Shown here piece by piece: positions 4,650 through 58,418 of a DNA stretch of 64,000 nucleotides; within the stretch, counting starts at the first letter, position 1, and each line of letters opens with the position of its first letter. The position numbers and the translations under genes were made by a program. A model generated the notes under the pieces. The model saw nothing but the letters and a program-made list of their open reading frames with translations. It was not told the DNA's origin and searched no databases. The DNA is from Sarea resinae. Its lineage: Eukaryota. The stretch spans positions 62,001 through 126,000 of the forward strand of contig JAPEUD010000007.1 of the NCBI GenBank assembly GCA_026026165.1, read 5' to 3'.

Positions 4650-4677
4650 GGGAGGGAGGGAGGGAGGGAGGGAGGGA
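4650..4677 (+). repeat. (GGGA)7 microsatellite
   Basis: Perfect run read directly, preceded by (GCAG)n. Confidence 0.9.
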
Positions 4678-5738
4678 AGGATAGAGTGGAGGGAATTGGT
4701 ATTACTCGATTCGACCCTCCTCTCCTCTGTCCTACTCTGCTTCTCTAGAGTACTACTCTTCTACTCTTCTCTGGTGATAAGCCATGGCAGCTGCGCACGG
4801 CGCGCCATTCCTTGACGAGCATCGCATACCTAGGTGTAGACTGATCGACTCTACTGTCATGATGGGTGTGTGGATGGATCGCGCGTGAGGAAGTAGTCGT
4901 AGATGAACGCCATGATCTTCTTCTTGACTGCCGATAAAACCACCACAGCAACTAACCAACCAACTACTGTACAGCGACAGGCTCTCCGGCGCCGATCATC
5001 CTCTCTTTCCCTAGCTACTCTCCCAGCCCTCCCAGCCTTCCCATGCTTTCTCTTCTCTTTCCATGCATCTTCGACGACACAACGTCCTTCCCACCCACCC
5101 ACCTACCCACACCCCCACCCCACTCCCGTACCCCGTTCCCCGTCGCCCTCGGGCGCCCAGACCTCCCCGGCAAAACCAAACGATCTCGCAAGACGCGGGA
5201 GGGATGATGGAAGCATGGCAGAAAAGTCCAGAAGAGCATACACTCTACGAGAACACGAGAATGCCAGGAGCCCCCCCTTCCTACCAGACACCCCCAAGAC
5301 CCCTGCGCCGTCGGGTGGAGAGTTAGTTTTGCGTTACACATTTATCCGGGACGGCGACCGTCTGTCTACCTTTTACCTGATGCCTTTGTCTCTCCTAGGG
5401 CCAGGTCTAGGTTTCCCGGTCTTGATCTAGACTGCCGCTGGCTGGCATAGAGTAGAGTACATGTGTGGGATTCCGCTGTTGACGCAATTCGGTCGGGTCG
5501 AAAACGTCGTTCGTCTTGTTTTGGCTATCTTTTGCCGTCATGTTGTGCTTGAGCCTCCCTTCACCTTATATATCTGCGGGATGCCAGAAGAGAAGAATGG
5601 CAGGAGTCTTATCATTGTATATCCAGGAGAGAGAGAGCGTGTGTGTATGTGTGAGTGAGTGAGGTTTGAAAACGAAACGAAAGGATACGACAACACAACA
5701 CGGCACGGCCTGATACGACATCATCCAACGCTGACACG

Positions 5739-41745: not shown

Positions 41746-44080
41746 CTACTCCTCTTCAGACTCTTCTTCCTCCTCCGCTGCCGGACTAGCCGGAGCTTTT
41801 CCCTTTCCCTTCCACTGTCCGCGAGGCTGCGGCTTTGGTAATGGTATATGCGTCCGAGGACGCGACTTCACCGCAGCGGGGGTCTTGGACTGCACGATCG
41901 GAGACTTGCTTTTCTCCTGGAGGGCCTCGATGCGCTCCTTCATCGATGGCGTTTTCTTGGCCGAGACGGGAACCACTTCCGCGTCTGGCTGCATCTCGGG
42001 AGCGGTCGAGGGACCCTCCAGGGCGGCCATCTTGGCCTTTAGAGACCTTGGCTGTCGAATGATCCGTGGCCAACTTGCCTCTCCGGATTCAAATCGGATC
42101 GGCGGCAGCGAGTCTGTCGTGGCAACTGGCATGGTAGGGGCTGGCGGGGTAGAGGAGAATGGAGGCACGACACAATCGTATGGATCAAGCTCGCTGGCGA
42201 GCGGGACCGCGAACGTGTCGATCGGATTCAGGCTTTGCGGAAAGAAAGCCTTTCTTTCTGCCTCGAAGGAAAATGCAGAGGACATCGGGCGGGCACGCGG
42301 CGTTTTGGCGGGACCAGCTGCGAGGAACGAGGCGGCGGTCACGGGCGCGGGCGCGAAGGGAAAATGCAACGAGGTCGGAAGAGGCGTTTGTGAGGGCGAG
42401 AGAAATGATGGGGGCGACAACGATCCTTTCTTCGAAGCTGGCTCTACTTCCTGCGTATGAAGTCAGTACACAAACGAGAAGGTCGGATTGCTATATCTAT
42501 ACATTACCTCTTGACCACTGGACGTCACAGCCTCCTGCAGAGGAACCCCAGATCGCTCTGGGGCCTGCAGGCCAGCTGTGGCGCCACGGGGCCCATCGAG
42601 GCTGTCCGCTTCCGATATGTGCTCCGTAGTGATTGCCTAATAGAAGTATAAGCAAGCAAGCAACAAACTCGAAGGCATCAATTTATCTTACCTCTTGGCC
42701 ACTGGACGCCACAGCCTCCTGCAGAGGAACCCCAGATCGCTCTGGGGCCTGCCGGCCAGCCGTGGCGCCACGGGACCCATCGAAGCCGGAGTCTTCGTCG
42801 TCTTTCGGTACTGATGCCGCAGGGAATGCCTGAGAAATGGGATTAGCAAAATACTTTGATCGAAGGACAGATGTATGTTACCTCTTGACCACTGGGCACC
42901 TGCCGTGGAACCTCAGATTGCTCTGAGGCCTGCAGGCCAACCGTGGTGCCACGGGGCCCATCGAAGCCGGCGTCGTCGTTCGTCGGTTCTGGTGCTGGCA
43001 CTTGCTCCGTGGTGAGTGTCTGAGAAATTGACAATTAGCAAGCTGGTCAGATTGTGCAGTAGCTGAAATTACCTCTTGACCACGGGACGCCACGGCTTCC
43101 TGCAAAGGAACCTCAGATTGCTCTGAGGCCTGCAGGCCAGCCGCGGCGCCACTGGGCCCATCGAGACCGGAGTCTTCTTGGTCGTCTTCGGCCTTCTTGT
43201 TCTTCTTCTTGCCTCTACGGCCGGCACCTCTTCCGCGCCTTCCAGAGCCATGTCGGGGCATCACTCCCGACTGCTCTTCAGGGAGCTCTTCGGATTTAGG
43301 GCCGTCGACCGTCACTGGTTCGGGTTCAGTGGGTTCAGTGGGTGAGGTGGGTTCGGTTGGTGAGGCAGGTTCTGGAGGGGGGCCATCGTCAGCAACCGGC
43401 AAGACGGGTTCAACAATGACAGAAGTCACGTCAGATGGTTCGAACGCACCGATCTGGGCAAGCACTAGAGATAGTGCTTCTTCCATGGCCGGTTGCTGGT
43501 GTGTAGATCTGAATTTCTCCATTTCCTGGTGTCCCCGGTTTCGAAAATAGTCTGCAATCATATTGATTGCCACCCCAACGAGATCGAGTGCCTTCAGCAC
43601 GGCCATCTCGATCCCCCCAATGACCCGATTCAAAAATGAGGTGAAGCCAAGGATAAGAATCATTAATACCCAAGCGACCGCAAAGATGAAGGCGAGGTGA
43701 GGGATTTGACTGATCAATCTGCTTCCCAAGTGGTAACCCAAACTGAACTCGAAGGGTACGGACGGCATAGGCGTTGTGTCTGGCGATTCGGTCGGCGAAA
43801 GTGGCTCTGTCGTTGAATCTTCCTCGTAAGGGTGGAGTCTCCCGTAGATATCGAGGTAGAGCGCCAATCCTCGGTCTGCGATGGCTTTCAGAGCTTCATT
43901 GTCGTACCCAGACACTCCATGTGAGAGCGGAGTGTCCGCCGGCTGGGGGGCCCCCAAAAAGAGAAACGGAACACCCTGAGTCAGACTATCTCTAATACTT
44001 AGAGAAGGCCCGTGGAAATGAGCGGAGAAGAGCAATGTCGTCACCAGGGCAAAGACATAAATGATGGCGTGGAAGAACAT
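41746..44080 (-). CDS. Unrecognised membrane protein (about 705 aa) with tandemly duplicated exons; exons 44080-43073, 43019-42882, 42829-42692, 42636-42508, 42450-41746
   Basis: Hydrophobic N-terminus, internal TM-like segment HLAFIFAVAWVLMILILGFTSFL, Pro/Glu-rich tail; four 52-57 nt phase-0 GT-AG introns join into one open frame. Confidence 0.75.
42503..43190 (-). repeat. Four-copy exon+intron tandem repeat, period 185-191 bp
   Basis: Recurring GATGGG(C/T)CC..GGC..CAGGCC.CAGAGC.ATCTG.GGTTCC..GG(T/C)CAAGAG|GTAA with exon ends at 43073, 42882, 42692, 42508. Confidence 0.92.
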
Positions 44081-44696
44081 GATGTCGAGATATCTTTTCG
44101 CACGGAAGAAGATAGAGTGCTGTGAGTTGTGGTATGAGAAGAGGCTTGTAGACAGCTGAATGAAGAAGTCTGAAGTAAAGAATCTGTCTGAAGTACGCGT
44201 CCGAAGTATGAGGGAAAGAGTTTTAGTTCATCTGAAGTACGCGGCCGAAGGATGAGGTAAAGGATCTGAAGATGAAATGGATTTGGAGGTGCAAGCTGGT
44301 TTTATGTGCGATTCGCTTGAAGATCAAACAGATAGTGAATGATGAAGTTGTCTGTCAACCAATAGAGTTGCCAGTCTTCCTAGACGAAAAGGGAAAAAAG
44401 GAGGGCGGGTTACGGTGAATAAGCATTCACAGGAAGGCTTCACCTGTATCAGCCTCGACTCTCTTTTTGTCAATAGAGAGACTGCTCAGCCGAATCCTAC
44501 GGGACGTTGGCTGATTCGAGGCCTGACTCTCCGCGTCGACAATGCATGAGAGATCTGATTCAACTTTAGCCCATGACTACTTGGGCATCTCCTTGCTTGA
44601 AATATCCATCCTGCTTATCCATCCTCAATTGGTCACTGGGCATCTCTCAAATCTCGCAGAAAGTTTTCGTGATGCAGCGTAGTCTGTTTTCTTTGT

Positions 44697-45232
44697 TTAT
44701 TTACTCGAGTTTTGCGCTGCCGTATCCTTTGTGTGTTCAATATACGTTCATTTCAGTCAGGACAAAGAGCTTACCAAATACACTTGATAAAAGTTCATCT
44801 TCACAGTCTCGCCAACTTTCACGAAATGTGCTCTTGCGGCCCAGTCTACTTCCACAGACCTTCCAATTTTCAAAACATATAATACCGTCCCATACAGCAT
44901 GACTTCATCGGAATTAGGTCCGAAGGGAAAGACCTTGAGCGGACTATGCTTCCGAATCGATACATGTTCCCACATGCCCTTGCGGAGCGTCAAGATCTCT
45001 AAAGCATGCAGTCAGATGCAGCCTGAATGAATGACTCCAAATTGAGAGGGAGATTACCCGAGCGCCCCTTAACCATCTTTGATGCCATGATCAACGTCGC
45101 ATCCTCGGTGAAGAACTCGGGATACTCATCATGAGCAGTGGGATTGTCTGATGTGGCATAGAACTGTTCGAAGAAATGTTTGATAGAAGAGTCAATTGGC
45201 AAATCGGGGTATGCTGAGGTATAGACGCTCAT
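44697..45232 (-). CDS. SnoaL/NTF2-like small protein, 3 exons
   Basis: FFEQFYATSDNPTAHDEYPEFFTEDATLIM..KVFPFG..EVMLYGTV..VDWAARAHF..MNFYQVYL|DTAAQNSSK. Confidence 0.82.
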
Positions 45233-45895
45233 GTTTAATGCTTGAGAAGAAAGAAGTCACAACGCTTTGGTCAAATTTGAGGGCTTGTAAGGCACTGCAG
45301 ATGCGGTTTCCACGGTCAAACGGCTTTAAAGCAAGCAATTAAAAGAACGCGAAAGAAGTATATTCGAGGGTAAAGTTATCAAAATGCTGAATATCGAGCG
45401 AGTCAATTGGCTGTGACACGATCCATGGATTGATTGACGTTATGAAATGCCATATCGATCGTTTCGTAGCCTGTACTAGGTAACGACGCAGCCATACGCT
45501 GTACTACACGTACCATAGATGCTATACGTCATGGAAATCCGGATAGACGAATAAGGTACCTTACCTCAAGGTAAGGTAGGTTAGGGAGTGCCTTCGTACT
45601 ATGTATGAATGAAATGGATCCCAGCATCGATGCATATCAAAATTACCAGGGCAGGTATCTTACAGTTCTCAAACTGCCTAGGATTCTAGGACTAGTATTT
45701 TCTGAATAACACTATGTGGTTAATTACAATGGTGACTTGAGAACCATTTTTATACACCCAAGTGGCCGGCGTCCACTGACCCTTCAAGGGCAGCGAAGAA
45801 GCACCGCTGAAAACAAGTCAAGTACTGCAATGAGCAGCTCGAATGAACAAAACAAGAGTCAGAGACAACTTTATGTACGCTCCACTAGTAGCCCT

Positions 45896-56679: not shown

Positions 56680-58418
56680 TCCTGTGCCAACTCCACGGCG
56701 ACTCCTCTCTCCATGGCATCTCCGATCACCATCTCCAACCGACTCGGGGAAGCATCTGACAGCATAACTTAGGCTAGCATAGCACATCCACGGCCGTCCG
56801 TCCGTCCGTTCATTCGTTCGTTCGTATCCAAGACCCAAACGAAGGCCTTTTTTTTGGTCTCTCACCCCATCTGTCTGCACCGCTAGAAGTCAGTCCATCA
56901 TGACATGCCGTTTCCCCCTTCGTTCTTTCTTTCCTCGCCGTGCGTCCCGCGTCCGCTGTCCGCTGTCCGCTGTCATCGGATGGCGGCCGGCCGGGCGGTC
57001 GGGGGTGGGGCGGAGCGAGGCGGCAGAATCGCGATTCGACATCGACGTCCCGCACGCGAGACGAATGGGAGCGGCTGCATTACACACTCATGTAGCTCGT
57101 ACATCTCGGGCAGAGTATGGTAGTAAGAAGAAGTGGTGGTAGTAGTGGTTGTTAGTAGTAGAAGCACTGAGTCAGTCATTCCCGTCGCTCGATCCAGTCG
57201 AGTCAAGTCATGGATGTCATGTCATGTCATCAGCTCCACAGCAGTACTCGAATAAGAGAAGAGAGTAAGTAAGCAAGAGCGAGCGAGCGAGCGAGCCTCA
57301 GGGACATCCGTTTCGAAACGAAACGAAAAGAATAAAGGCCGCGGTGGTGTATTTCCGAGGAGATGCTTGCCAGAAGATATAGGTGGCTGTTTCTCCGTGG
57401 AGAAGGAAAGGGAGTAGAATTATATATGTAAAGTTGGCGCGTCGGGTGGTGCCCTAGGGTGTCCTAGGGCGTTGGGTGAGCAGGGCGGTGGGCAGTGGGT
57501 GATGGGTCATGGGCGGTGGTGGTGGTGGTGGTGGTCGGCTGTGGGGCACTAACATGTACGTACGAACTAAGTACACAGTACCTGCCTTACCGCGCAGTAC
57601 ATACCTAGTACTGTGTACTGTGTACTGTGTACTCGTACGACTTCGTGCTGAGAGGACCGAGGTTCGAGGTTCGAGGTTCGAGATATGAGGTATTACTTGA
57701 CTCGACTCTACTACTAAGGTACTATACCTTCGCGGCTTTGCATAGGTAAGGTAGATATATGTGTACAGAGAGAGAATAGAGAGAAAGGATGTCTAGATAG
57801 AGAGGTAGAGAATAGAGAACAGAGAGGTAGAAGGGTAGAGAGATATAGAGAATATCATAAGGGAGAGCGCAAAGAATCAGAACAAGAAAAGAATCAACAA
57901 AACTACAATTTAAAAGCAAACAAACTAAAGAGCTAGAACAAGAAAAGAGAAGGAGAGATAACTTCTTAGAGATCTCTTATACACATAGATCTCTCCTGCA
58001 AGGAAAAGAAATTAAAATCAAAGGAGAAGTTAAAAGTCAAATCCTGCTTCTGAGTGAAATATCTAGTCATTCTTTAAAAAGGGGTGAATCTGCAGGATTT
58101 TGAGGACTTTAAGGATATTTGTATTTGTTGTAGGTAGGTAGGTAGTAGAAAAGTAGGTGGCTAGACAGGTAGGTTAATCTATCTACCTTTATCTAGCGGA
58201 GCTATATAGATAGATTGAGTGTATTACTCAAGGAGTCACAGGTATTAAAATCATACGATTGATAGAAGAAATCAGTCAAAAGATGTGGGATATAGTTATT
58301 CAACTCTCGTAAAGGGAAAATCGAAATGATTAGATATCTATTCGGCTACAAGGGATCAAGGATCTGTAGGTCCTGTTGTTATTAAAGACCTTCCCCCCTA
58401 TCGTAGCGGACCTTCCTC

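Follow-up and report, generated by a model that had tools for sequence, protein, structure and literature searches.

Structure of the gene

A gene of five exons (1008, 138, 138, 129, and 705 nt) lies on the minus strand of the analyzed window, starting at position 44080 and specifying a spliced open reading frame of 705 aa. The window is the whole 64-kb stretch G000:C111:62001-126000 of a Sarea resinae assembly of 25.5 Mb in 143 contigs; Sarea and Zythia are described as ascomycetes living in resin (PMC7451776, PMC7961326). NUDIX, DUF4149, and Ku80 genes neighbor the array gene in the window. One Ku80 exon matches a protein assigned by NCBI to Sarea resinae with 100% identity over 152 aa, the following matches being at 76-79%. 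Small intron-containing ORF pieces with no Pfam match lie between the array gene and the DUF4149 gene (44757-45256, minus strand). The gene is composed as follows.

43073..44080, minus strand: exon 1, aa 1-336, with a hydrophobic N-terminus, a transmembrane segment, an acidic Pro-rich linker, a basic tract, and repeat (hairpin) 1
43020..43072, minus strand: intron 1, 53 nt, phase 0
42882..43019, minus strand: exon 2, 138 nt, a 54-nt spacer followed by hairpin copy 2
42830..42881, minus strand: intron 2, 52 nt, phase 0
42692..42829, minus strand: exon 3, 138 nt, a 45-nt spacer followed by hairpin copy 3
42637..42691, minus strand: intron 3, 55 nt, phase 0, weak branch point
42508..42636, minus strand: exon 4, 129 nt, a 36-nt spacer followed by hairpin copy 4
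42451..42507, minus strand: intron 4, 57 nt, phase 0
41746..42450, minus strand: exon 5, aa 472-705 and the stop codon, a Pro/Ser-rich tail with two short motifs, both recurring among the fragments detected on C54 and C105

Re-derivation of this structure confirmed the preliminary description of the locus with respect to the 705-aa product, the sizes of the three internal exons, and the phase-0 introns of 52-57 nt. The four repeat peptides were recovered as quoted there, each ending at CAAGAG/GTAA (the slash marks the exon end). The splicing pattern is predicted from the sequence: all four introns are of the form GTAA..YAG, and the donors AAGAG/GTAA are located after positions 43073, 42882, 42692, and 42508 of the minus strand. 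A branch-like CTRAY motif is present at -17 to -20 in three of the four introns, intron 3 having the weaker GCTTAT. In silico, the internal exons can be skipped in frame, as had been proposed, in all seven possible combinations, generating products of 570-662 aa (570, 613, 616, 659, or 662 aa). Retention of a single intron leads to a truncated protein (482, 394, 430, and 485 aa for introns 1 to 4 taken in turn), and the reading frame of a wholly unspliced transcript stops at 400 aa. Every indel of the spacers, like the 9-nt deletion of copy 2, preserves the reading frame, from which we argue that the gene is translated.

Read-contig depth in the likely source run was 334-396 over the repeats versus 347-362 on the flanks. 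Because this depth is flat, the array is not an assembly collapse and the four copies are real in that run. No joint, gap, or variant was listed among the contig sets from three of the five listed sequencing runs, none of the five being an RNA run. Two small-share runs yielded only short unspliced contigs.

Two simple repeats were observed in and near the gene. A 44-nt tandem repeat (2.6 copies, 44165-44268) occupies a CT-rich region just 5' of the ATG and contains one ACGCGT word; such MCB-like words are not enriched in the window (32 matches versus 53 expected). A 9/18-nt tandem repeat in exon 1 (43329-43372) encodes the Pro/Thr/Glu/Ser-rich linker.

Encoded protein and search for relatives

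From its N-terminus, the protein consists of two hydrophobic segments (aa 1-24 and 122-157), the acidic Pro-rich linker, the basic tract, the repeats, and the Pro/Ser-rich tail. Three segments precede the first repeat.

44009..44080, minus strand: signal-peptide-like hydrophobic segment, aa 1-24, based on hydropathy only
43610..43717, minus strand: transmembrane-like segment, aa 122-157, within a long helix predicted over aa 114-194 (single-sequence model, pTM 0.36)
43193..43255, minus strand: Arg/Gly/Lys-rich basic tract, aa 276-296, immediately 5' of the first repeat, based on composition

The basic tract may be NLS-like or RNA-binding. With a pTM of 0.36, the single-sequence structure model is too weak to support a fold search.

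The hydrophobic segments agree with the membrane protein of no recognized family that had been proposed, and the homology search called for by that proposal returned no homolog. The 8000 best candidates of 589-2000 aa contained none for exon 1, nor did 4621 candidates of 411-2000 aa contain one for exon 5. Searches of Pfam provided only a sub-threshold MarC match for exon 1 and nothing for exon 5. The Atlas search provided no usable match for exon 1 and, for exon 5, Aim21-like clusters at 0.83-0.87, below the 0.9 lead level. Exact sequence look-up was negative (0/3), as were a metagenome scan (0/519 pattern matches confirmed) and a motif search of metagenome and viral contigs (0 matches). A search of 1.84 billion representatives with aa 1-200 provided one match (E 7e-4), and we dismissed it as an unrelated repeat of low complexity.

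Fragments of the gene were detected on two other contigs of the assembly. Contig C54 harbors pieces related to aa 20-61 (52% identity; L013 7821-7946) and aa 634-667 (65%; L013 1545-1646), located on the same strand about 6 kb apart amid decayed sequence. Contig C105 harbors a piece related to aa 587-619 (52%; L015 883-981), also in decayed surroundings. The repeat is absent from both. The C105 fragment adjoins what we take, by eye from its motifs, to be a copia-type retroelement remnant, and the C54 fragments enclose what is presumably a broken helicase-like piece. These N- and C-terminal fragments suggest a formerly larger family.

A predicted hairpin abuts each donor site

The 3' part of exons 1, 3, and 4 is predicted to fold into a long hairpin, of which copy 2, in exon 2, keeps the apical stem.

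43073..43165, minus strand: hairpin copy 1, 93 nt, GCAA loop, -58 kcal/mol, z -5.46
42882..42965, minus strand: hairpin copy 2, 84 nt, z -1.49; the 3' arm has lost 9 nt in frame, and the GNRA-capped apical stem is retained
42692..42784, minus strand: hairpin copy 3, 93 nt, GCGA loop, -54.2 kcal/mol, z -3.47
42508..42600, minus strand: hairpin copy 4, 93 nt, GCGA loop, -54 kcal/mol, z -4.07

From tip to base, the architecture comprises an 8-bp apical stem capped by a GNRA loop (GCAA in copies 1 and 2, GCGA in copies 3 and 4), a 4-nt bulge on the 3' side, two stems of 7 and then 12 bp separated by a small internal loop, and a weak stem at the base. The bulge and loops are common to all copies, and pair 13-82 is an A-C or C-A mismatch in every one of them. 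The basal helix reaches the last base of the exon, the hairpin thereby abutting the 5' splice site.

Shuffled sequences never attained the stability of copies 1, 3, and 4 (0/200 each) and did so in 12 of 200 cases for copy 2. In a merged composition-corrected list of 8522 windows of 93 nt drawn from the 64 kb, copies 1, 3, and 4 between them took ranks 1, 2, and 6, copy 2 falling outside the top 20. Synonymous recoding of copies 1, 3, and 4 did not reach the native energy (0/600, and 0/300 with matched GC content); recodings of copy 2, which has lost much of its lower stem, were as stable in 19 of 600 cases. The fold exceeds the constraints of composition and encoded peptide in three of the four copies and is marginal in copy 2.

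In the predicted pre-mRNA ensemble, local hairpins dominate, with pairing probabilities of 0.98-0.99 for the apical stems and 0.85-0.99 for the lower stems of copies 1, 3, and 4. The basal three pairs, which cover the exonic bases of the donor, are unstable in context (0.0-0.99). In the predicted spliced mRNA, copy 3 pairs with copy 4, and their own apical stems drop to 0.32. Duplexes between arms of different copies reach -62 kcal/mol and can match the stability of pairing within a copy. The intervening spacers are weakly folded (-3 to -8 kcal/mol). Folding is also strong on the antisense strand (z -4.35, -1.92, -2.20, and -3.64 for copies 1 to 4), and energies computed with DNA parameters are similar on both strands.

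Rfam provided four matches, the best with an E-value of 2.4 and none at the gathering threshold. A covariance model applied to the window and seven further loci (119,781 bases) retrieved just the four copies and their antisense echoes.

Three other structures were observed on the plus strand of the window: a GC-rich long hairpin on a 7-nt repeat (56926-57018, -57.3 kcal/mol, z -3.66), a hairpin of GTAC-containing microsatellite-like repeats (57556-57648, z -4.06), and a purine/pyrimidine long stem beside an AGGG repeat (4666-4758, z -2.62).

Sequence conservation among the copies

The copies belong to a 115-nt repeat family well beyond chance (67-86% identity to the reference), whose conserved block consists of the 3' 93 nt of exons 1 to 4. 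In ungapped comparisons of copies 1, 3, and 4, identity is 0.87-0.93 per 10-nt bin inside the block and 0.13-0.67 outside, dropping at both hairpin edges. In their first 24 nt, the coding 5' spacers share 13-16 positions, a divergence approaching that of the introns. Intron alignments have 48-61% identity, splice signals included; no more than two of the six pairs exceed shuffles, namely 1-2 (p 0.006) and 3-4 (p 0.04). The preliminary description had reported that the 3' halves of the exons and the splice sites were kept and that intron interiors had diverged, which these values bear out; the equal identity of introns and exons that it had named as contrary evidence was not observed (48-61% in the introns versus 87-93% per bin in the conserved block).

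Within the block, pooled rates were nearly equal at synonymous and nonsynonymous sites (pS 0.107, pN 0.128; pairwise ratios of 0.64-2.40 on few changes). Variable columns numbered 10, 6, and 5 at codon positions 1, 2, and 3, first positions varying most. Fourfold sites were identical at 12/14, 15/16, and 17/19 positions, and silent sites in the block are much more alike than the neighboring introns. With pS close to pN, no sign of purifying selection is seen on the repeat peptide. The exons are adjacent and homologous, introns of the same phase flank them, and the frame is kept, as in tandem symmetric exon duplication. Thus, of the proposal that exon duplication had occurred under selection, the tandem duplication and some form of constraint stand, although the constraint does not bear on the peptide.

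Only the four copies were found when the genome was searched for further DNA copies that would reveal a mobile element (MITE or introner). A genome motif search detected at least four other matches with two mismatches, versus at least three in the control.

Preservation of base pairing

Evidence for selection on pairing comes from one genome, in which four paralogous copies provide 22 inferred events; no ortholog was found. The null models start from the consensus of these same four copies. Pairing is maintained in 133 of 136 cells and the GNRA loops are preserved. Three pairs changed on both sides: U-A/C-G at 40-53, G-C/G-U/A-U at 24-72, and G-C/A-U at 19-77.

With the 22 events placed randomly on the tree ((1,2),(3,4)), 9.4 broken cells were expected versus 3 observed (p 0.003), and 0.39 double changes versus 3 (p 0.004), for a joint probability of 5e-5 in 20000 runs. 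Matching the substitution spectrum provided p values of 0.003 and 0.004 and a joint value of 1e-4. Variants of the matched null provided 2.5e-4 (core stems only), <1e-4 (other gap placement), and 2e-4 (copy 2 omitted). We also compared consensus energies, a test that is less circular because the structure is re-predicted for each simulated alignment. The sense energy was reached in none of the simulations (0/1500 and 0/800), and the antisense energy was unremarkable (p 0.18; 122/800). Among the 27 core pairs, G-U occurs in six and A-C in one (p 0.06). Five of the six G-to-A changes fall at positions tolerated by the RNA fold.

Two cruder comparisons were less decisive. Under a star-tree null, in which copies 1, 3, and 4 were mutated from the consensus and minimum free energies were summed, the sense strand was not favored (p 0.069 sense, 0.031 antisense). 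Column shuffles, which related sequences alone can exceed, were moderately exceeded (11/500, 69/500, 11/500, 274/500, and 11/500). Substitution among the paralogous copies is structure-preserving and specific to the sense strand under the tree-based nulls, which were significant; the star-tree null was not, and the column shuffles were moderate.

The main non-functional rival invokes a DNA quasi-palindrome, devoid of RNA function, whose core would drive local duplication and gene conversion, the latter holding the cores alike after the flanks have diverged. Template switching between the arms would generate the double-sided changes. The folding of both strands, the similar DNA energies on either strand, dN close to dS, and the non-significant star-tree result for the sense strand are all consistent with this explanation, as are the partial decay of copy 2 and the conflict of one of the four informative sites with the 12/34 tree. 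However, correction at the DNA level is strand-symmetric, yet retention of the structure is sense-specific (0/800 versus 122/800). The six-to-one excess of G-U over A-C, the bulge and loops common to all copies, and the location of five of the six G-to-A changes at places tolerated by the RNA fold also argue against it. We regard a purely DNA-level origin as rather unlikely, and selection of the hairpin structure as RNA as probable. Gene conversion may well add to the similarity of the copies under either reading.

Less likely alternatives: cleavage, exon skipping, and translational pausing

Rnt1 requires a G at the second position of the loop. This position is not a G in the hairpins of the array, which argues against an Rnt1-like cut within the main functional rival, namely cleavage of the nascent RNA by an RNase III of the Pac1/Rnt1 type, repressing the gene, or processing by Dicer of the hairpins, or of duplexes formed between copies, into small RNAs. 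With 27-36 bp, the bulged stems would be suitable substrates, and arms of different copies pair well (to -62 kcal/mol). The genome encodes a single-domain RNase III, the 374-aa C51 open frame, which among solved structures is most closely related to Ribonuclease 3 entries. Two more loci carry a pair of RNase III domains each, and one Piwi locus is intact. There is also a precedent in Schizosaccharomyces pombe, in which Pac1 cuts a stem-loop in the ORF of the transporter gene mfs2 (PMC8421224). However, these enzymes are general in fungi and uninformative on this particular substrate, and one site would be enough for RNase III. The hairpins sit in a coding sequence, which is an exclusion criterion for fungal milRNAs in PMC9757828, where hairpin small RNAs derived from coding sequences are treated as likely misannotations. 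Cleavage thus appears unlikely. A second Piwi-domain locus (G000:C66:93366-94380) has several stops inside its matches, corresponding either to introns or to a decayed Argonaute.

The preliminary description interpreted the locus as an array of cassette exons generating a length-variable protein through alternative splicing or copy-number variation. In the version weighed here, skipping could be steered by competing pairing of a 3' arm with the 5' arm of a later copy. In agreement with this model, all seven skips are in frame and inter-copy duplexes can equal the stability of the hairpins themselves; competing structures in mutually exclusive exons have also been proposed to arise by duplication of stem-loops (PMC9013439). 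However, phase symmetry is not evidence of skipping because a frame-keeping duplication of an intron-plus-exon unit produces it anyway. The repeat displays no constraint at the protein level, dN not being below dS, and the copy-specific double changes fit pairing within one copy. Moreover, introns of 52-57 nt imply intron definition, which dominates in fungi (PMC12861292), where skipped exons are reported to account for 3% of alternative-splicing events (PMC3925392). We consider this model very unlikely. Slowing of ribosomes downstream of the membrane anchor by stems of about -55 kcal/mol, recurring every 43-46 codons after the polybasic tract, is the least probable explanation: the stability and even spacing of the stems, the weak folding of the spacers (-3 to -8 kcal/mol), and the basic tract directly upstream would suit such a brake, but it needs neither the shared bulge, nor the GNRA loop, nor the donor register, and no slippery heptamer was seen before any copy upon reading the sequence by eye.

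Discussion

Our results suggest that the feature kept among the copies is an RNA hairpin before each splice site rather than a peptide, forming a hidden control signal in the coding sequence. On balance, we favor, by a modest degree, a reading in which the hairpins form a tandem array within the coding region, operate in cis on their own transcript, and most likely serve as repeated sites for protein binding next to the donors. The repeated peptide would largely be a passenger in a disordered tail.

In the proposed scenario, an ancient tandem duplication of an intron-plus-exon unit would have led to four copies, whose introns are now near random identity and whose coding spacers are 54-67% identical. 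Hairpins would fold co-transcriptionally as each donor emerges and would provide repeated binding sites for an RNA-binding factor setting the fate of the transcript. At the pre-mRNA stage, binding could affect the efficiency of the adjacent 5' splice site, retention of any one intron truncating the protein. The hairpins could also serve in localization or translation of the mRNA of this membrane protein because they survive splicing. In each case, the effect would be multiplied by the four copies.

Two yeast systems guide this interpretation. Coding-region localization elements of ASH1 consist of several stem-loops in one coding sequence and are bound by She2p/She3p. They resemble the array in their number per coding sequence, which suits multivalent binding, and differ from it in being dissimilar in sequence and not tied to introns. 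She2p (PF11435) had no match in the genome; the control genomes gave none either. Autoregulation of RPL30 involves a kink-turn structure at the 5' splice site that is bound by the ribosomal protein. There, as in the array, a structure reaching the donor could control splicing and persist in the mRNA, although RPL30 has a single kink-turn site with a ribosomal protein as binder rather than four GNRA hairpins. By analogy with ASH1 and RPL30, the bulge, internal loop, and GNRA cap shared by four copies with weakly folded spacers between them most resemble an array of protein-binding sites. The protein-binding mechanism, with its putative binder, is put forward tentatively.

We also considered that the exons could be RNA-regulatory cassettes providing one GNRA hairpin per 5' splice site, with the peptide as filler. 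The number of hairpin exons would tune the amount of full-length mRNA, possibly via feedback by binding of the protein's own Arg/Gly-rich tract to the hairpins. We view this possibility as doubtful.

Other known systems share parts of the arrangement. Dscam-type competing RNA structures (PMC9013439) likewise combine tandem duplicated exons with duplicated stem-loop arms, but their pairing arms are intronic and direct a mutually exclusive choice in animals, whereas each hairpin of the array is wholly exonic, coding, and closed within its own copy. The mfs2 stem-loop of S. pombe also lies in the coding region of a fungal membrane-protein mRNA and is conserved between paralogous copies, but it is one 37-nt stem-loop near the start of the ORF (PMC8421224) rather than four 93-nt hairpins abutting donors. 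Rhizophagus SP7-like effectors have a signal peptide, a basic NLS-like tract, and imperfect hydrophilic repeats in common with the protein studied here. Their repeats function as protein and terminate in conserved islands of amino acids (PMC11333574); the array gene differs in encoding a transmembrane segment and in showing no constraint on the peptide, and no match to them in sequence was found.

CNGCAG words in the repeat and a weak Rfam match on copy 3 recall the non-canonical Hac1/Xbp1 intron (RF04247). This candidate was rejected. The score was 18.6 bits versus a gathering threshold of 41 (E 5.8), and the Ire1-like stem has a pair probability of 0 in copy 4. Ire1 processing requires two 7-nt CNGCNGN loops flanking a frame-shifting intron; in the repeat, the words are 30 nt apart and in frame. 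With respect to RNA editing of the A-to-I type in fungi, the Tad2-Tad3-Ame1 interaction is placed in Sordariomycetes, editing being also reported in Pyronema (PMC11087585). We found no description of the arrangement reported here in a literature search whose coverage leaves out most subscription journals.

Repeated exons are commonly read as protein modules. The data presented here point instead to a duplication that amplified an RNA structure in the coding sequence of a fungus, its register with the donor site being fixed. If confirmed, the array would provide a compact natural test of the control exerted by exonic hairpins over intron-defined splicing or mRNA fate, in which four graded copies, one of them half-broken, would serve as built-in controls. 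It would also be a warning that a dN/dS ratio near 1 in repeat exons can mask strong selection at the RNA level.
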